A stretch of 23,613 nucleotides of DNA from a virus (Duplodnaviria > Heunggongvirae > Uroviricota > Caudoviricetes), in IMG/VR virus record IMGVR_UViG_2617270938_000001; one strand, written 5' to 3'. The translations under genes were made by a program, and so were the position numbers. Shown here piece by piece: positions 12,604 to 22,948 of the stretch. How positions within the stretch are numbered: the first letter of the stretch is position 1; every line of letters begins with the position of its first letter. The notes below the pieces were generated by a model. It made no database searches, was not told where the DNA came from, and worked only from the letters and a program-made list of their open reading frames with translations.

Positions 12604-12978
12604 ATGCTCATAGATTTGGTTTTACCTTACCCGCCGACGGTGAACACTTACTGGCGACGCCGTGGCAGCACATATTTTGTATCAAAAGCCGGGGAGCGTT
12701 ATCGCCGGGCAGTGGCGCTTATTGTTCGCCAGCAGCGGCTGAAATTAAGCCTGTCCGGAAGGCTGGCGATAAAGGTGATTGCAGAGCCACCGGATAAGCG
12801 TCGTCGCGACCTGGACAATATCCTGAAAGCACCGCTGGATGCGCTGACGCATGCGGGAGTGTTAATGGACGATGAGCAGTTTGATGAAATCAATATCGTT
12901 CGTGGTCAGCCAGTATCTGGTGGACGTCTGGGGGTGAAGATTTACCCCATAATGCATGAAGAGCAGGTCAAAAAATGA
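12604..12978 (+). CDS. rusA: Holliday junction resolvase RusA
   Basis: 124 aa with PPTVNTYWRRRG and RRRDLDNILKAPLDAL, matching the RusA motifs I recall (PPSNNRYYR... / RRRDLDNLQKA...). AGAGG SD. Confidence 0.85.
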   Translation: MLIDLVLPYPPTVNTYWRRRGSTYFVSKAGERYRRAVALIVRQQRLKLSLSGRLAIKVIAEPPDKRRRDLDNILKAPLDALTHAGVLMDDEQFDEINIVRGQPVSGGRLGVKIYPIMHEEQVKK

Positions 12979-13796
12979 AACTGGAAGATTTACCGAAATA
13001 CTACTCCCCAAAATCCCCCGGCCTGACTGATGCATCGGCCTCAACGTCGAAAGATGCGCTGAGTATCACTGATGTGATGGCCGCGCAGGGCATGACACAG
13101 AATCGGGCTGAGATGGGGTTTTCTGCGTTCCTTGGGAAAATGGGCATCAGTATGAATGACAGGGCGCGGGCAACAGAATTACTGGCAGATTATGCACTCA
13201 GTCGGTGCGATCGTGTGGCGGCGTTGAGAAAACTTCCGGCAGAAATAAAACCGGTAGTGATGCGCATTATGGCTTCGTACGCTTTTGAGGATTATGCCCG
13301 CAGCGCAGCGAGTAAAAAGCAGTGCCCTTGTTGCTATGGGGAAAAATTTATTGAAAGCATAGTTTTTACAAACAAGGTCCAGTATCCGGATGGTAAGCCG
13401 CCGGTATGGGCAAAGTGTACGAAAGGTGTGTATCCGTCTTACTGGGAAGAATGGAAAAAAGTCAGGGAGGTGGTAAAAGTTGCCTGTCCGGAGTGTGGCG
13501 GAAAGGGTGAGGTTTCCACCGCCTGTAAGGATTGCCGTGGGCGTGGTGTCGCCATTCATCGTGAAGAGTCGGTAAAACGTGGTATGCCTGTTATCAGAGA
13601 CTGCCAGCGTTGTGATGGTCGTGGCTGTGAAAGACTACCATCAACGGAGGCATTTAATGCCATACGCAAAGTGACGAGTGCTATCACGCTTGATACGTGG
13701 AAAAAATCAGTGAAACGCTTTTACGATACGTTGGTGGTTCGGTTTGACATTGAAGAGGCATGGGCGGAGCGGCAGTTAAAGAGGGTAACGCGATAG
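12975..13796 (+). CDS. late-gene antitermination protein Q (82/21/933W type)
   Basis: 273 aa with a Cys-rich zinc motif (CPECGGKGEVSTACKDCRGRG ... CQRCDGRG). Overlaps the rusA stop (ATGA); followed immediately by a promoter/terminator pair. Confidence 0.8.
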   Translation: MKLEDLPKYYSPKSPGLTDASASTSKDALSITDVMAAQGMTQNRAEMGFSAFLGKMGISMNDRARATELLADYALSRCDRVAALRKLPAEIKPVVMRIMASYAFEDYARSAASKKQCPCCYGEKFIESIVFTNKVQYPDGKPPVWAKCTKGVYPSYWEEWKKVREVVKVACPECGGKGEVSTACKDCRGRGVAIHREESVKRGMPVIRDCQRCDGRGCERLPSTEAFNAIRKVTSAITLDTWKKSVKRFYDTLVVRFDIEEAWAERQLKRVTR

Positions 13797-15549: not shown

Positions 15550-15626
15550 CCACCATTAGCTCATCGGGATAGAGCGCCAGCCTTCGAAGCTGGTTGCGCG
15601 GGGTTCGAGTTCTCGATGGCGGTCCA
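15550..15626 (+). tRNA. tRNA-Arg (anticodon TCG)-like; candidate tRNA with imperfect stems
   Basis: D-arm GCTC-ATCGGGATA-GAGC; anticodon arm CCAGC-CTTCGAA-GCTGG; T-loop TTCGAGT; 3' CCA. One A-C mismatch in the acceptor stem and two G-T pairs in the T-stem. Confidence 0.45.
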
Positions 15627-16573: not shown

Positions 16574-16909
16574 TTATGGACTTTGTTGTTTTAGTCCATA
16601 AGGACATATTTGCAGAGTGCAACGGTTATTAAAGCATTCATTCAATACGTTATCTGTATTTGTAGGGCATTCCTGGCTGTTTTTGATTAAATTCCAGAAT
16701 GTTTTATTGAATGGTACTACGTTGTAAATGGTTACAGGTAGCACTTTGTTATTGAGCATGATACCTGTGTGAGTCAGTGTAAATATACTTTCAGGAGGTA
16801 AGAAAGCATCCGATTGATACCAGATTATTAATTTTACTTTACTCCATATGACTGAAAAAGATATTCCGCATGATGGCTGGATAACTGTATCAATCACAAT
16901 CCACTTCAT
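16574..16909 (-). CDS. IraM/YcgW-family protein (anti-adaptor-like), AT-rich moron on the opposite strand
   Basis: 111 aa, [22 protein letters not shown]...IIWYQS...FLPP...ECP...ICPYGLK, matching my recollection of E. coli IraM from memory (not searched). AAGGAAG SD 6 nt upstream. Local GC is much lower than the flanks; a perfect 11-bp inverted repeat (16584-16615) covers the last codons. Confidence 0.6.
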
Positions 16910-17169
16910 TTAGCTTCCTTGTTTATGCCTTGCTGGTGATGTTCTGAAAAGTATAAATGATATTTTTGAATATAAACCATAGAGCAGAATTATTTTTCTG
17001 ATGTTGTTTATTGTTTATTTAAATGCAGGGTGGTTTATATCTCGTCTTGTAGTTTATCCATGCATATCTGCTTGATGATCAGGTTTCTATTTAAGGTATG
17101 GTTTTGTGTTTTTTCTGTGTTACATGTCTGGTATTTTAAAGAATTATTTTTCAGATGGTGGAAAGAACC

Positions 17170-17358
17170 ATGGCATTTAAACACTATGATGTTGTCAGGG
17201 CGGCGGCGCCGTCAGATCTTGCGGAAAAGCTGACACATAAACTGAAAGAGGGCTGGCAGCCGTTTGGTAGTCCGGTGGCCATAACCCCTTATACCCTGAT
17301 GCAGGCGATTGCAGCAGAAGGTGATGTGGTGGTCAGTGGTGCAACTGAGCCGGAGTGA
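17170..17358 (+). CDS. small conserved hypothetical protein (62 aa) upstream of the holin (possibly DUF1737-like)
   Basis: MAFKHYDVVRAAAPSDLAEKLTHKLKEGWQPFGSPVAI...; position just before the lysis cassette. Family name is recalled, not verified. Confidence 0.45.
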   Translation: MAFKHYDVVRAAAPSDLAEKLTHKLKEGWQPFGSPVAITPYTLMQAIAAEGDVVVSGATEPE

Positions 17359-17600
17359 TACTACGTCATCGTACTGGCCCGGCATTCCAGGCCATAAAAG
17401 ACGGTCTGGCAGTGGGACTAAATGCACTGACGCTGACGGATATTACCAAAAATGCAACGTATGGCGTTGAGATAGAAAGTCTGGTGCTGGAGATAAATAC
17501 ACCGGCATCATCATAAAAAGTGAGCCAGTCAAATGGAAGGTATCGTTAAACTCACCGGTAGTGTCAGTGGAGCGTCTGAGACGCTTGCATGAGTTATCAG

Positions 17601-17633
17601 AGCCATCAGTAGTTAACTGGTGGCTTTTTTATT
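17601..17633 (+). terminator. intrinsic terminator-like hairpin just upstream of the holin (AGCCATCAG-tagttaa-CTGGTGGCT + TTTTTTATT)
   Basis: 9-bp stem with one G-T pair followed by a T-run; promoter-like TTGAGA ... GATAAAT about 100-130 bp upstream. Confidence 0.5.
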
Positions 17634-17665
17634 GTTGTCAGCTTCCGGATAACGGGAGACGGGGT

Positions 17666-17881
17666 ATGGACCAGATGGAAAAAATCACAACAGGTGTGTC
17701 ATACACCACGTCAGCGGTGGGAACGGGCTACTGGTTCCTGCAGTTGCTGGACAGGGTTTCCCCGTCTCAGTGGGCGGCAATAGGCGTGCTGGGGAGTCTG
17801 CTGTTTGGGCTGCTGACATATCTGACTAACCTGTATTTCAAAATCAGAGAGGACCGTCGTAAGGCGGCACGGGGAGAGTAA
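17666..17881 (+). CDS. class II holin, phage 21 S21-type pinholin (71 aa) with dual-start motif
   Basis: [71 protein letters not shown], close to S21 as I recall it; Met1 and Met4 give the dual start. The track ORF 17561..17881 includes upstream run-in. Confidence 0.85.
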
Positions 17882-17885
17882 TTCA

Positions 17886-18236
17886 ATGACTCAAAACTAT
17901 GAACTGATTGTGAAAGGGATCCGCAATTTTGAGAATAAAGTTACGGTAACTTTAGCGTTACGGGACAAAAAACGCTTTGACGGTGAAATTTTTGACCTGG
18001 ACATCTCGCTGGACCGTGTTGAAGGTGCCGCGCTGGAGTTTTATGAGGCAGCAGCCAGAATGAGCATCAGACAGGTCTTCCTGGATGTTGCTGCCGGGTT
18101 ATGTGAAGGGGATGAGCAGTCGCCGGAAAAGCGCCCCGTAATTTTAGAGGCGCAGAATGTATGGATAACCTACAAAGGAAAGCTACCGGGAAGAATTACT
18201 GGTTCTCTGAAGACTCCTCCGGAATCACAACCTTAA
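17886..18236 (+). CDS. hypothetical protein (116 aa) embedded between holin and endolysin (YdfR-like position)
   Basis: GGGGAGAG SD; starts 5 nt after the holin stop. Some lambdoid prophages carry a gene at this position, but I cannot verify the family. Confidence 0.55.
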   Translation: MTQNYELIVKGIRNFENKVTVTLALRDKKRFDGEIFDLDISLDRVEGAALEFYEAAARMSIRQVFLDVAAGLCEGDEQSPEKRPVILEAQNVWITYKGKLPGRITGSLKTPPESQP

Positions 18237-18299
18237 GTCACTGACCGGAACAGATAAACCTGTCCGTGGGCAGAAACCGATAAATCCTGATAAATATCC

Positions 18300-18833
18300 A
18301 TGAACACCAAAATCAAATACGGCCTGTCGGCTGCCGTTCTGGCGCTGATTGCCGCTGGTGCGCCTGCGCCTGACATTCTCGACCAGTTTCTGGATGAAAA
18401 GGAAGGTAACCACACCACGGCATACCGTGATGGCGCGGGTATCTGGACCATCTGCCGCGGTGCCATCCTGGTGGATGGCAAACCTGTCGTTCCGGGCATG
18501 AAGTTGTCGAAGGAAAAATGCGACCGGGTTAACGCCATTGAGCGTGATAAGGCGCTGGCATGGGTGGAGAAAAACATCAAAGTGCCATTGAGCGAACCCC
18601 AGAAAGCGGGGATCGCGTCATTCTGTCCGTACAACATTGGTCCCGGTAAGTGTTTCCCGTCGACGTTTTATAAACGAATTAATGCAGGTGATCGCAGGGG
18701 AGCGTGTGAGGCGATTCGCTGGTGGATTAAGGACGGTGGCAGAGACTGCCGTATTCGTTCAAACAACTGCTACGGTCAGGTATCCCGTCGTGACCAGGAG
18801 AGCGCGCTGGCGTGCTGGGGTATCGACAGATAA
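18300..18833 (+). CDS. endolysin, lysozyme (T4-lysozyme / GH24-like) with N-terminal SAR (signal-anchor-release) domain
   Basis: 177 aa. Gly/Ala-rich weakly hydrophobic N-terminus (GLSAAVLALIAAGAPAP) followed by a lysozyme-like core (EGNHTTAYRDGAGIWTICRG ...), as in phage 21 R. Follows the pinholin. Confidence 0.85.
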   Translation: MNTKIKYGLSAAVLALIAAGAPAPDILDQFLDEKEGNHTTAYRDGAGIWTICRGAILVDGKPVVPGMKLSKEKCDRVNAIERDKALAWVEKNIKVPLSEPQKAGIASFCPYNIGPGKCFPSTFYKRINAGDRRGACEAIRWWIKDGGRDCRIRSNNCYGQVSRRDQESALACWGIDR

Positions 18834-18922
18834 GCAGAATATTTTGCTGAAAAATGCGGTTTGCTTACACGGACGGATAACACGAAATCCTGCGAACTGA
18901 CAAAAACTAAGTGAATAAAAGT

Positions 18923-18962
18923 AAAAACCCCGTTTGTTGGCTGCAAGCGGGGTTTTGTGTTT
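18923..18962 (+). terminator. intrinsic terminator-like hairpin inside the lysis cassette (AAAACCCCG ... CGGGGTTTT + GTGTTT)
   Basis: 9-bp stem with a 15-nt loop and U-rich 3' side, between the endolysin and the small TM ORF / Rz. Confidence 0.45.
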
Positions 18963-18992
18963 CCTGACTCTGGAAAAGTCAAAGGAGAAAGT

Positions 18993-19130
18993 GTGTTTGA
19001 TTTTAGCAAACTGATTCGGGAGATTCGAGTGATGGCTGAAAAATTATCCACCTGGAAGTTCATTCTTATCTGGCTGGTGTTTGTGATTATGGCCTCCGGT
19101 TATTTCATCGGTCAGATACGCTGGTGGTGA
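18993..19130 (+). CDS. small membrane protein (45 aa) immediately upstream of Rz; not in the ORF track
   Basis: GTG start with strong SD AAGGAG 5 nt upstream: (M)FDFSKLIREIRVMAEKLSTWKFILIWLVFVIMASGYFIGQIRWW. One TM segment; stop 1 nt before the Rz ATG. Confidence 0.4.
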   Translation: MFDFSKLIREIRVMAEKLSTWKFILIWLVFVIMASGYFIGQIRWW

Positions 19131-19131
19131 A

Positions 19132-19497
19132 ATGAACCGCGTACTGTGCGTGGTCATCATTGCCCTGCTGGTGGCCTGTGGTGCGCTTAGTCTGGGGCTG
19201 AATCATTACCGTGATAACGCCATAACCTACAAAGAGCAGCGCGATAAAAAAGTCAGTGAGCTGGAGCAGGCAAATGCAACCATTACTGATATGCAGCAGC
19301 GCCAGCGTGATGTTGCTGTACTTGATGCCAGATACTCGAGGGAATTAGCCGATGCGAGAGCTGAAAATGAAACTCTGCGCGCTGACGTTGCCGCTGGTCG
19401 TAAGCGCCTGCGGATCAACGCCACCTGCCCCGGTACCCGAACACGGCACTGGTCGGCGTGCAGGTGGACTCGGAACAGTTCGGCAGCCAGCAGGTGA
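19132..19497 (+). CDS. i-spanin Rz, N-terminal ~90 aa only; C-terminus replaced by out-of-frame J sequence (likely pseudogene); no Rz1 found
   Basis: [93 protein letters not shown] closely parallels lambda Rz; similarity is lost at about 19400-19420 where the J frame opens. Confidence 0.7.
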
Positions 19498-22280
19498 GCC
19501 GTAATTATCATCTTCGCGGGCGCATTCTGCAGGTGCCGTCGAACTATAACCCGCAGACGCGGCAATACAGCGGTATCTGGGACGGAACGTTTAAGCCAGC
19601 ATACAGCAACAACATGGCCTGGTGTCTGTGGGATATGCTGACCCATCCGCGCTACGGCATGGGGAAGCGTCTCGGTGCGGCGGATGTGGACAAATGGGCG
19701 CTGTATGTCATCGGCCAGAATTGCGACCAGTCGGTGCCGGATGGCTTTGGTGGCACGGAGCCGCGCATCACCTGTAATGCCTACCTGACCACACAGCGCA
19801 AGGCGTGGGATGTTCTCAGTGATTTCTGCTCGGCGATGCGCTGTATGCCGGTATGGAACGGGCAGACGCTGACGTTCGTGCAGGACCGACCGTCGGATAA
19901 GGTGTGGACCTATAACCGCAGTAATGTGGTGATGCCGGATGATGGCGCGCCGTTCCGCTACAGCTTCAGTGCCCTGAAGGACCGTCATAATGCCGTTGAG
20001 GTGAACTGGATTGACCCGGATAACGGCTGGGAGACGGCGACAGAGCTTGTTGAAGATACGCAGGCCATTGCCCGTTACGGTCGTAACGTCACGAAGATAG
20101 ATGCCTTTGGCTGTACCAGCCGGGGGCAGGCACATCGCGCCGGGCTGTGGCTGATTAAAACAGAACTGCTGGAAACGCAGACCGTGGACTTCAGCGTGGG
20201 TGCTGAAGGGCTTCGCCATGTGCCGGGCGATGTCATTGAAATCTGTGATGATGACTATGCCGGTATCAGCACCGGTGGTCGCGTGCTGGCGGTGAACAGC
20301 CAGACCCGGACGCTGACGCTCGACCGTGAAATCACGCTGCCATCCTCCGGTACCACGCTGATAAGCCTGGTTGACGGTCAGGGTAATCCGGTCAGCGTGG
20401 AGGTCCAGTCCGTCACCGACGGCGTGAAGGTGAAAGTGAGCCGTGTTCCTGACGGCGTTGCCGGATACAGCGTGTGGGGGCTGAAGCTGCCGACGCTGCG
20501 CCAGCGCCTGTTCCGCTGCGTGAGTATCCGTGAGAACGACGACGGCACGTATGCCATCACCGCCGTGCAGCATGTACCGGAAAAAGAAGCCATCGTGGAT
20601 AACGGGGCGCACTTTGACGGCGACCAGAGCGGCACGGTGAATGGTGTCACGCCGCCAGCGGTGCAGCATCTGACCGCAGAAGTCACCGCAGACAGCGGGG
20701 AATACCAGGTGCTGGCCCGCTGGGACACGCCGAAGGTGGTGAAGGGCGTGAGCTTCCTGCTTCGCCTGACCGTGGCAGCGGATGACGGCAGTGAGCGGCT
20801 GGTCAGCACGGCCCGGACGACGGAAACCACTTACCGCTTCACACAACTGGCTCTGGGGAACTACAGGCTGACAGTCCGGGCAGTAAATGCGTGGGGGCAG
20901 CAGGGCGATCCGGCGTCGGTATCGTTCCGGATTGCCGCACCGGCAGCGCCGTCGCGGATTGAGCTGACGCCGGGCTATTTTCAGATAACCGCCACGCCGC
21001 ATCTTGCGGTTTATGATCCGACGGTACAGTTTGAGTTCTGGTTCTCGGAAAAGCGGATTGCGGATATCAGGCAGGTTGAAACCACAGCACGCTATCTTGG
21101 GACGGCGCTGTACTGGATAGCCGCCAGTATCAATATCAGGCCGGGTCATAATTATTATTTTTACGTTCGCAGTGTGAACACCGTTGGCAAATCGGCATTC
21201 GTGGAGGCTGTTGGTCAGCCGAGTGATGACGCATCCGGCTATCTGGATTTTTTCAAAGGCGAGATAGGGAAAACCCATCTGGCTCAGGAGCTGTGGACGC
21301 AGATTGATAACGGTCAGCTTGCGCCTGACCTGGCTGAAATCAGAACATCCATTACGGATGTCAGCAATGAAATCACACAGACCGTCAATAAGAAACTGGA
21401 AGACCAGAGTGCGGCAATTCAGCAGATACAGAAGGTTCAGGTTGATACAAATAATAACCTGAACAGCATGTGGGCTGTGAAGCTGCAGCAGATGCAGGAC
21501 GGACGCCTTTATATCGCGGGTATTGGTGCCGGTATTGAGAACACCCCTGACGGCATGCAGAGTCAGGTGCTGCTGGCGGCAGACAGGATTGCGATGATTA
21601 ATCCTGCGAATGGCAACACAAAGCCGATGTTTGTTGGGCAGGGCGATCAGATATTCATGAACGACGTGTTCCTGAAACGCCTGACGGCTCCCACCATTAC
21701 CAGCGGCGGTAATCCTCCGGTATTTTCCCTGACACCGGACGGGCGGCTGACGGCGAAAAATGCCGATATCAGCGGTAACGTGAATGCGAACTCCGGGACG
21801 CTCAACAACGTCACGATTAACGAGAACTGTCGGGTTCTGGGAAAACTGTCTGCGAACCAGATTGAAGGCGATCTCGTTAAAACAGTGGGCAAAGCTTTCC
21901 CCCGGGACTCCCGTGCACCGGAGCGGTGGCCATCAGGGACCATTACCGTCAGGGTTTATGACGATCAGCCGTTTGACCGGCAGATTGTTATTCCCGCGGT
22001 GGCGTTTCGTGGCGCTAAACATGAGCGGGAGAATAACGATATTTATTCGTCATGCCGCCTGATGGTGAAGAAAAACGGTGCTGAAATTTATAACCGTACC
22101 GCGCTGGATAATACGCTGGTTTATACAGGTGTTATTGATATGCCTGCTGGTCGCGGTCACATGACGCTGGAGTTTTCGGTATCAGCGTGGCTGGTAAATG
22201 ACTGGTATCCCACAGCCAGTATCAGTGATTTGCTGGTTGTGGTGATGAAGAAATCCACAGCAGGTATCACGATTAGCTGA
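19404..22280 (+). CDS. J: tail-tip host specificity protein J, 5'-truncated (C-terminal ~940-960 codons; no upstream J sequence, start codon or promoter of its own)
   Basis: Long high-GC ORF with the size, position (immediately before lom and stf) and motifs expected of lambda J's C-terminal two-thirds. The frame is open from 19404; the track ORF begins at GTG 19458. Head and tail-shaft genes are absent upstream. Confidence 0.8.
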
Positions 22281-22348: not shown

Positions 22349-22948
22349 ATGCGTAAAGTTTGTGCAGCCATTTTGTCCGCAGCCATCTGTCTGGCCGTAT
22401 CCGGTGCGCCTGCATGGGCGTCTGAGCAGCAGGCCACACTGAGCGCAGGGTATCTTCATGCCCGTACGAACGCTCCCGGCAGCGATAATCTGAACGGGAT
22501 TAACGTGAAATACCGTTATGAGTTTACGGACACGCTGGGGCTGATTACGTCATTCAGTTATGCCAACGCTGAAGATGAGCAAAAAACGCATTACAGCGAT
22601 ACCCGCTGGCATGAGGATTCCGTGCGTAACCGCTGGTTCAGCGTGATGGTGGGGCCGTCTGTGCGCGTGAATGAATGGTTCAGCGCGTATGCGATGGCGG
22701 GTGTGGCTTACAGCCGTGTGTCGACTTTCTCCGGGGATTATCTCCGCGTAACTGACAACAAGGGGAAAACGCACGACGTGCTGACCGGAAGTGATGACGG
22801 TCGCCACAGCAACATGTCTCTGGCGTGGGGGGCTGGCGTGCAGTTTAACCCGACCGAATCCGTGGCCATTGATGTCGCTTATGAAGGCTCCGGCAGTGGC
22901 GACTGGCGCACTGACGGTTTCATCGTGGGTGTCGGTTATAAGTTCTGA
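22349..22948 (+). CDS. lom: Lom outer-membrane protein (Ail/Lom/PagC family)
   Basis: 199 aa; signal peptide, GINVKYRYE motif and C-terminus AYEGSGSGDWRTDGFIVGVGYKF, the same C-terminus as lambda Lom as I recall it. Confidence 0.9.
   Translation: MRKVCAAILSAAICLAVSGAPAWASEQQATLSAGYLHARTNAPGSDNLNGINVKYRYEFTDTLGLITSFSYANAEDEQKTHYSDTRWHEDSVRNRWFSVMVGPSVRVNEWFSAYAMAGVAYSRVSTFSGDYLRVTDNKGKTHDVLTGSDDGRHSNMSLAWGAGVQFNPTESVAIDVAYEGSGSGDWRTDGFIVGVGYKF

Follow-up and report, generated by a model that had tools for sequence, protein, structure and literature searches.

Several phage proteins bind the host ribonuclease RNase E: Srd of phage T4, which contacts the catalytic half of the enzyme, gp0.7 of T7, and Dip of phiKZ (PMC4980113). 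A further protein linked to RNase E is YdfR of Escherichia coli K-12 (P76160), which is encoded by the Qin prophage, 4 nucleotides (nt) after the class II holin gene essQ and before the gene rrrQ. Here we describe a gene of the same family, in the same slot, on a 23,613-nt stretch of DNA, the IMG/VR record IMGVR_UViG_2617270938_000001 (Caudoviricetes), which we refer to in its entirety as the window. The gene (positions 17886 to 18236, + strand) encodes a 116-amino acid (aa) protein of the YdfR/DUF1327 family and lies between the holin gene S and the endolysin gene R of a lambdoid prophage remnant. Our preferred reading, to which we tentatively assign a probability of about 0.4 and which builds on analogy with K-12, is that the gene encodes a late-expressed cytoplasmic accessory protein whose N-terminal head would bind the catalytic half of RNase E, and also RNase G, possibly together with RNA, and would thereby modulate RNA decay or processing. 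The family assignment, the domain anatomy, the dispensability of the gene between S and R and the presence of the head outside lysis cassettes come from the present analysis, and the RNase binding and the association with RNA come from the literature on K-12 YdfR.

The sole experimental lead to function that we found for the family is a study published in RNA Biol in 2026 (PMC13232886). In that study, a two-hybrid screen in which RNase G served as the bait yielded the first 72 codons of K-12 ydfR three times, K-12 YdfR gave two-hybrid signals with RNase E residues 1-597, and Strep-tagged YdfR copurified FLAG-tagged Rne 1-598 in a preparation that carried DNase-resistant nucleic acid (PMC13232886). 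An earlier note on the window, made from the sequence alone, had described genes at this position as functionally uncharacterised. This still holds for the family, whose function is unproven, but it has been overtaken for the K-12 protein, for which binding to the N-terminal half of RNase E, with copurifying RNA, is now reported (PMC13232886). Between the window protein and K-12 YdfR, 80% of the residues of the head (aa 1-74) are identical and 95% similar, and the head covers the reported binding segment, 1-72. By analogy, the window protein would act like K-12 YdfR and would matter for the phage. Beyond the head the two proteins differ: the C-terminus of K-12 YdfR is unrelated (KLSEKVESYLQHQYSFKIENPANKHERPHHKYL) and its stop codon overlaps the start of R (ATGA), whereas the window carries a PEKRP...KTPP tail followed by a 63-nt spacer. 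In a separate report, overexpression of ydfR led to a 3-fold rise in the minimum inhibitory concentration of streptomycin (PMC12924614).

Our analyses show that the 116-aa open reading frame (ORF), which begins with ATG, truly codes for a protein and belongs to the YdfR/DUF1327 family. The product has a mass of ~13.1 kDa and an isoelectric point (pI) of 5.2. Pfam returned exactly the family that the earlier note had guessed, DUF1327 (PF07041), with a score of 142.4 bits (cutoff, 25; E = 5.3e-42) over profile positions 1-92 of 93; this family is not a well-characterised one. The match is full-length and above the gathering score, and Y5, Y53-E54, the DRxEG motif and the strand/helix fold are all present. 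Among the PHROGs, the protein matched phrog_406 (positions 1-113 of 114, E = 1.7e-67) and phrog_2091, both of which are listed as function unknown. The DNA of the gene is 100% identical to the RefSeq coding sequence of WP_000193264.1, a "YdfR family protein" of E. coli 203740. The family is already catalogued, and the copy in the window, which lies in a defective prophage, matches one of its annotated members exactly. Because the Pfam score is high above cutoff, the ratio of nonsynonymous to synonymous polymorphism (pN/pS) is 0.36 and the same predicted domain is kept in homologues of 25-30% identity, the ORF is not a chance one. Other resources added no assignment: no NCBIfam model matched the 116-aa protein, PADLOC defence models gave no family at E <= 1 for the window protein, the long variants and one distant homologue, and a sequence-profile search of the PDB returned nothing related, the best hit being CENP-P at E = 1.1.

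The protein is made up of two dissimilar parts. The N-terminal head (aa 1-74; positions 17886 to 18107, + strand) is acidic, with a pI of 4.9, and is the sole part conserved family-wide. AlphaFold2 (AF2) predicts for it antiparallel strands of residues 5-14, 18-27 and 34-43, packed by one long helix of residues 50-73, with a mean predicted local distance difference test (pLDDT) score of 86.4 in a model of the head by itself that was built with distant homologues and scores of 74-90 inside the full-length model. The most strongly conserved stretch, DRxEGAxLEFYE (aa 43-54), lies at the turn into the helix, and in a wide alignment that includes distant homologues Y53 and E54 are invariant and Y5 is nearly invariant. 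The C-terminal tail (aa 75-116, PEKRPVILEAQNVWITYKGKLPGRITGSLKTPPESQP; positions 18108 to 18233, + strand), which consists of PEKRPVILEAQNVWITYKGKLPGRITGSLKTPP followed by ESQP, is basic, with a pI of 8.4, and has AF2 pLDDT values <50. It is nearly invariant among E. coli members and is absent from K-12 YdfR and from homologues of 72-86 aa. A Foldseek search against BFVD returned nothing at E <= 0.001. We read the modelled head as a minimal, common super-secondary unit, without catalytic residues or an assignable superfamily; the predicted fold is compatible with a protein- or nucleic-acid-binding module and is not evidence for one.

The surroundings of the gene are those of a lysis cassette, as the earlier note had proposed in placing it between a pinholin-type S and a signal-anchor-release (SAR)-type R. 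Upstream lies a 71-aa S21-type class II holin, or pinholin (positions 17666 to 17881, + strand), which matches PF04971, "Bacteriophage P21 holin S" (E = 9e-33), and phrog_9876 and phrog_20, both annotated "holin"; it has a dual start, MDQM, and is best read from the ATG at 17666 (MDQMEKI...KAARGE). Downstream lies a 177-aa phage lysozyme of the RrrQ/933W-R type with a SAR-like N-terminus (positions 18300 to 18833, + strand), which matches PF00959 (E = 5.5e-24) and the endolysin family phrog_7 and is close to 933W R over its whole length. Read directly, its translation has a G/A-rich, weakly hydrophobic N-terminus (YGLSAAVLALIAAGAPAP) and the arrangement E35-x8-D44-x5-T50. Such an N-terminus together with E-x8-D-x5-T is what is expected in a SAR endolysin of the R21/RrrQ type.

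The junction between S and the DUF1327 gene is tight. The start of the gene directly after the holin stop, with a strong Shine-Dalgarno (SD) element, was already described in the earlier note. The SD, GGGGAGAG, lies at 17871 to 17878 (+ strand) within the 3′ end of the holin gene, the holin stop TAA occupies 17879-17881, and 4 nt (TTCA) separate it from the ATG at 17886. The junction GGGGAGAGTAA-nnnn-ATG is common to the window and 933W, in which the same SD element serves R, and the junctions of K-12 Qin (GAGAGGAGAGTAA) and YYZ-2008 (GCGCGGGGAGAGTAA) deviate only just 5′ of the holin stop. No promoter-like site was found on the + strand between S and the DUF1327 gene, and the terminator-like hairpin of this part of the cassette, a 12-pair stem followed by the T-run TTTATTGTTG (positions 17599 to 17627, + strand), lies just 5′ of the holin gene, where it is presumably read through by Q-modified polymerase. 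These features bear out the view of the earlier note that the gene is cotranscribed with the lysis genes.

At its 3′ end the gene is followed by a 63-nt spacer that forms the leader of R (positions 18237 to 18299, + strand), with an in-frame TAA at 18291-18293 and without an SD in the stretch before the R start (18285-18299; CCTGATAAATATCC-ATG). The last ~16 nt of this spacer are conserved in YYZ-2008 and mEp460. We considered and rejected an RNA element in the spacer: it has no significant RNA structure (fold z-score -0.18), and there is no convincing Rfam match in 16900-19600, where the sole match is a rimP leader on the minus strand (18900-18989) that falls below threshold (29.9 versus 47 bits). 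By comparison with 933W, the DUF1327 gene has taken over the strong SD at the end of S, and R is left with an SD-less leader. On this basis YdfR would probably be made in amounts comparable to those of 933W R, and R translation would probably be weaker in the window.

Despite this position, it is all but certain that the DUF1327 protein is no structural component of the lysis machinery. In 933W, S, which is identical to the window holin at 69 of 71 aa, abuts R with no DUF1327 gene between them, and a DUF1327 protein is encoded by only 101 of the 370 phage records with a match to the S-R region. Because nearly the same S and R adjoin without it in 933W, the gene is an optional insertion into a self-sufficient S-R cassette and is dispensable for lysis. 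The protein itself bears none of the marks of a lysis protein, in agreement with the observation of the earlier note that it lacks transmembrane (TM), holin, antiholin and endolysin features. It has no TM segment (the maximum Kyte-Doolittle mean over 19 residues is 1.03, versus 1.70 for the holin) and no lysis-family Pfam or PHROG match. It does not resemble a membrane-type holin or antiholin, having neither a TM segment nor a holin match in Pfam or PHROGs; nor an endolysin, DUF1327 being its sole Pfam match at E <= 0.1; nor a spanin, since it lacks a TM segment and its N-terminus, MTQNYELIVKG, has no Cys lipobox, and spanin families match only the ORF at 19132-19497; nor a Mu-type releasin, as there is no TM segment and no DUF2730 Pfam match at E <= 0.1.

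Distant members of the family point the same way. An exhaustive hidden Markov model (HMM) search of 1.84 billion representatives gave only 87 matches, among them stand-alone heads of 72-86 aa with 25-50% identity. These stand-alone heads are located not in lysis cassettes but in siphovirus tail-gene clusters, at four different positions: 3′ of the tape-measure gene in Citrobacter; between the tail assembly chaperone and tape-measure genes in Serratia; immediately 5′ of an L-like tail gene in Sodalis ligni, 3′ of an M-like gene and several intervening ORFs; and 3′ of an I-like gene on the IMG/VR contig L003. The distant-head loci are L003 3001-3576, L004-L007 5001-5553, L008 5001-5519 and L010 5001-5219. 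Since stand-alone heads occur in the tail-gene clusters of Citrobacter, Serratia and Sodalis, the function of the head is independent of the lysis genes; and since 933W has S and R without the gene and distant members sit in tail-gene clusters, the position between S and R does not imply a lysis role. A single-protein scan of viral contigs with one query (P0169) found nothing. A 77-aa ORF after the Serratia tape-measure gene was considered as a second DUF1327 head and rejected (hhalign probability 0.2%).

Taken with the K-12 data, these observations are consistent with the following sequence of events, the RNase steps of which rest on K-12. The ydfR gene is transcribed with the late operon and translated from the strong SD at the end of S, so that YdfR would be abundant in the cytoplasm when the lysis genes are expressed. 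Its activity would reside in the conserved acidic β-β-β-α head, the basic tail being exchangeable. The target of the head would be RNase E, which it would contact at the catalytic N-terminal half, and to a lesser degree RNase G, perhaps with RNA as well. Late in lytic growth, this binding may modulate how RNA is processed or degraded, the site of action being neither the membrane nor the cell wall.

A number of points weigh against this proposal. The RNase E data are limited to the K-12 orthologue and to overexpression assays, the full-length short-linker YdfR fusion gave a signal only with Rne 1-597, and overproduction of YdfR altered few transcripts and left growth unaffected (PMC13232886). 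The authors of that study note that a contaminant could explain the retention of RNA (PMC13232886), RNA might possibly bridge the interaction between YdfR and RNase E, and an acidic head such as this one is not typical of a protein that binds RNA directly. In addition, every E. coli locus that was examined has the gene at exactly 4 nt from an upstream S21-type holin: this is so in all 79 of the 79 IMG/VR loci with upstream sequence, and the same 4-nt spacing is found in K-12 Qin, YYZ-2008, mEp460, Stx2-86, Evi and PhiR12, which a lysis-linked role would also explain. The 4-nt holin junction is not a feature of distant family members.

Such a lysis-linked role could be that of a soluble regulator of lysis timing, whose acidic head would bind the basic, invariant C-terminal tail of the holin or the Lys-rich N-terminus of R (MNTKIK) and so delay or sharpen pinholin triggering or SAR release. 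We regard this, the main rival to our reading, as unlikely, though it deserves to be weighed. A regulator of this kind would function like an anti-releasin or a cytoplasmic antiholin cofactor such as T4 RIII. RIII has also been ascribed an RNA-related role (PMC9409239). In phage Mu, the releasin gp25 (DUF2730) is likewise a small accessory protein in or close to the lysis cassette that acts from the cytoplasmic side, and its cytoplasmic domain controls release of the SAR endolysin via Lys residues in the short cytoplasmic segment of the endolysin (PMC9239132); gp25 has an N-terminal TM anchor, whereas the window protein has none. The constant placement of the gene directly 3′ of an S21-type holin in E. 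coli, with its 4-nt spacer and shared SD, would fit such a regulator, as would the near-invariance of the cytoplasmic holin tail across 13 holin alleles, and the loss of the strong SD in front of R, which upon insertion of the gene is left with an SD-less leader, could retune lysis by itself. A K-12 ydfR mutant is moreover cited as a hit in an envelope-integrity screen (PMC13232886), but that phenotype could be a polar effect on rrrQ, and the main text of the envelope-screen paper (PMC3879167) does not mention ydfR. Set against a role in lysis timing are 933W and most other phages with this S-R pair, which lyse without a DUF1327 gene, the stand-alone heads in tail-gene clusters far from lysis genes, and the protein itself, which, unlike Mu releasin, has no membrane anchor and matches no Pfam or PHROG entry of the lysis category. 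Covariation between holin and YdfR alleles was also considered as a clue and proved uninformative, as the alleles occur in free combination and the cytoplasmic tail of the holin does not vary.

The distribution of the gene and the selection acting on it bear on whether it has a function at all. DUF1327 genes are among the commonest uncharacterised prophage genes of E. coli: related DNA is present in 4314 of 5426 complete genomes (~80%), and 1903 genomes cover >=80% of the gene. In the phage collection, the 101 records that encode a relative are all Escherichia lambdoids, including many Shiga toxin (Stx) 1a- and Stx2c-converting phages as well as YYZ-2008 and mEp460. The pN/pS value given above, calculated over 34 distinct 116-codon alleles, is similar in head and tail, and the gene is under purifying selection. 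Between the deeply diverged alleles of the window and YYZ-2008, codons 1-44 share 49% nt, 45% amino acid and 34% third-position identity, and the tails share 88% nt identity. The gene is a mosaic. The C-terminal variants split after codon 112, giving ...ESQP in the window, ...KW, a coiled-coil-like extension in forms of 176/183 aa, and forms of 263-287 aa. "Tail-only" proteins from the exhaustive search were rejected as a separate family, being fragments or internal deletions. One partial DUF1327 protein that is 95% identical to the window protein (P0068), on a 24.6-kb contig, is labelled Enterococcus faecalis in NCBI/UniRef; this label most likely reflects contamination or mislabelling.

It is very improbable, on this record, that the gene has no current function and hitchhikes as filler in prophages that are mostly defective, kept there through its linkage to the lysis cassette. 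The element that carries it is indeed a deletion remnant, many family entries are frameshifted, truncated or fused, and overexpression in K-12 was almost without phenotype (PMC13232886). Filler would, however, not be expected to show constraint in both head and tail, nor an amino acid identity that exceeds third-position identity over codons 1-44 of two deep alleles, nor a head of confidently predicted fold that is conserved between genera at identities as low as 25%, and the gene is carried by the viable phages mEp460 and YYZ-2008 and by Stx phages.

A small convergent gene, with a product of 86-110 aa, lies directly against or overlaps the 3′ end of many DUF1327 genes. Three of the four tail-cluster lineages (those of Citrobacter, Serratia and the IMG/VR contig L003) have partners of phrog_10490 (91-110 aa, function unknown), which are mutually homologous (E = 1e-15 to 1e-23). 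In the S-R slots of E. coli, the partners belong to phrog_2411, phrog_2572 and phrog_1853 and covary with the C-terminal variant of YdfR. Phage Evi has a 72-aa head with a 98-aa convergent partner, and the partner in PhiR12_2_star is annotated as DUF1823. Taken together, these S-R slot partners, each behind a YdfR C-terminus of longer or alternative form, were observed at L012 2501-3631, in L081, L085, L087, L091 and L093 after the ydfR match, at L097 1801-2340 and at L098 1801-2518. The S-R junction acts as a slot that variable accessory genes occupy. The C-terminal extension of the long forms was also considered as a homologue of phrog_10490; this was unsupported, with E >= 0.3 in a tiny database and 0.04 for the related P0152 N-terminus.

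These pairings raise the possibility that YdfR is one half of a convergent, moron-type two-gene module, for example an antagonist-effector or a self-immunity pair, in which the late-expressed YdfR would act on or together with the small helical protein from the opposite strand and of which the window copy would be an orphan without its partner. We consider this doubtful. The partners fall into at least five families without detectable mutual homology, a pattern that a hot spot for unrelated morons would fit equally well, and no partner is present in 65 of 80 close loci, in the window, in K-12, in YYZ-2008 or in mEp460, although the gene is still under purifying selection. Furthermore, the PADLOC defence models gave no match to any of the partners or YdfR variants. 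The partners also enter a broader version of the RNase E reading, in which YdfR proteins would be a family of RNase E/G adaptors or modulators of temperate phages, encoded in late operons, whether lysis cassettes or tail clusters, and built of a constant head that binds the RNase and of tails that can be exchanged. In this scheme the head would serve to recruit RNase E or to block it, the C-terminus that covaries with the partner would confer target specificity, and the stability of late, lysis or partner transcripts would be tuned as a result, often in pairing with a convergent small gene that is probably expressed from the prophage and overlaps the ydfR gene at the 3′ end. This wider scheme is speculative, and we think it distinctly improbable as a whole.

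Srd of T4 is an early gene product of a virulent phage, whereas ydfR is a late gene of temperate phages. The two would nonetheless be alike, if the K-12 data transfer, in being small phage proteins that bind the catalytic half of RNase E (PMC4980113; PMC13232886), with the difference that Srd stimulates the enzyme and K-12 YdfR is reported to bind it. No relationship of sequence or structure between the two was found, though no direct comparison was made. The phiKZ RNA degradosome inhibitor Dip (gp37) also targets RNase E, but at RNA-binding sites in the C-terminal scaffold (PMC4980113). A further comparison is offered by RapZ, the host adaptor that presents GlmZ to RNase E: it falls into the same two-hybrid class as YdfR, with contact to the catalytic domain only, and both proteins carry RNA (PMC13232886). 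RapZ has no homology to YdfR, and it gave signals also with Rne 1-415, whereas YdfR did so only with Rne 1-597 (PMC13232886). Modulation of RNase E by the head, if real, would add lambdoid phages to T4, T7 and phiKZ among the phages that manipulate RNA decay in the host, and if YdfR proteins are of the adaptor class, they would be to lambdoid phages what Srd is to T4, Dip to phiKZ and RapZ to the host. The gene is carried by Stx1a, Stx2c and some Stx2/Stx2a converting phages, where it is coexpressed with the lysis genes that control toxin release; were it instead to tune lysis by pinholin and SAR endolysin, it would bear on the timing of Shiga toxin release.

The remainder of the window is that of a lambdoid prophage remnant. 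It contains an integrase gene (165-1295, - strand), a Q antiterminator gene (12975-13796), a tRNA-Arg gene (15550-15626) and genes for RusA and a DNA methylase, in addition to S-ydfR-R. The packaging, head and most tail genes are all missing. The gene for the Rz spanin (19132-19497) is truncated, its Pfam match covering profile positions 1-83 of 126 and its similarity to other genomes ending near 19437, and what is left of it runs directly into the C-terminal ~four-fifths of a tip-attachment gene of the lambda J type (19458-22280), after which comes lom (22349-22948). This Rz/J-type junction was found in none of the 5426 complete E. coli genomes. Between R and Rz lie a strong terminator-like hairpin with a 14-pair stem (18924-18956, + strand) and an ORF of 57 aa (18957-19130, + strand) with a hydrophobic C-terminal half, which has no Pfam match and is 100% conserved in the IMG/VR locus L093. 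Two morons are located 5′ of the lysis cassette. The first, an ORF on the - strand (16574-16909), has no Pfam match, and its positional counterpart in strain 203740 is annotated in RefSeq as the anti-adapter protein IraM; the second (17155-17358, + strand) encodes a DUF1737 protein (E = 1e-16).

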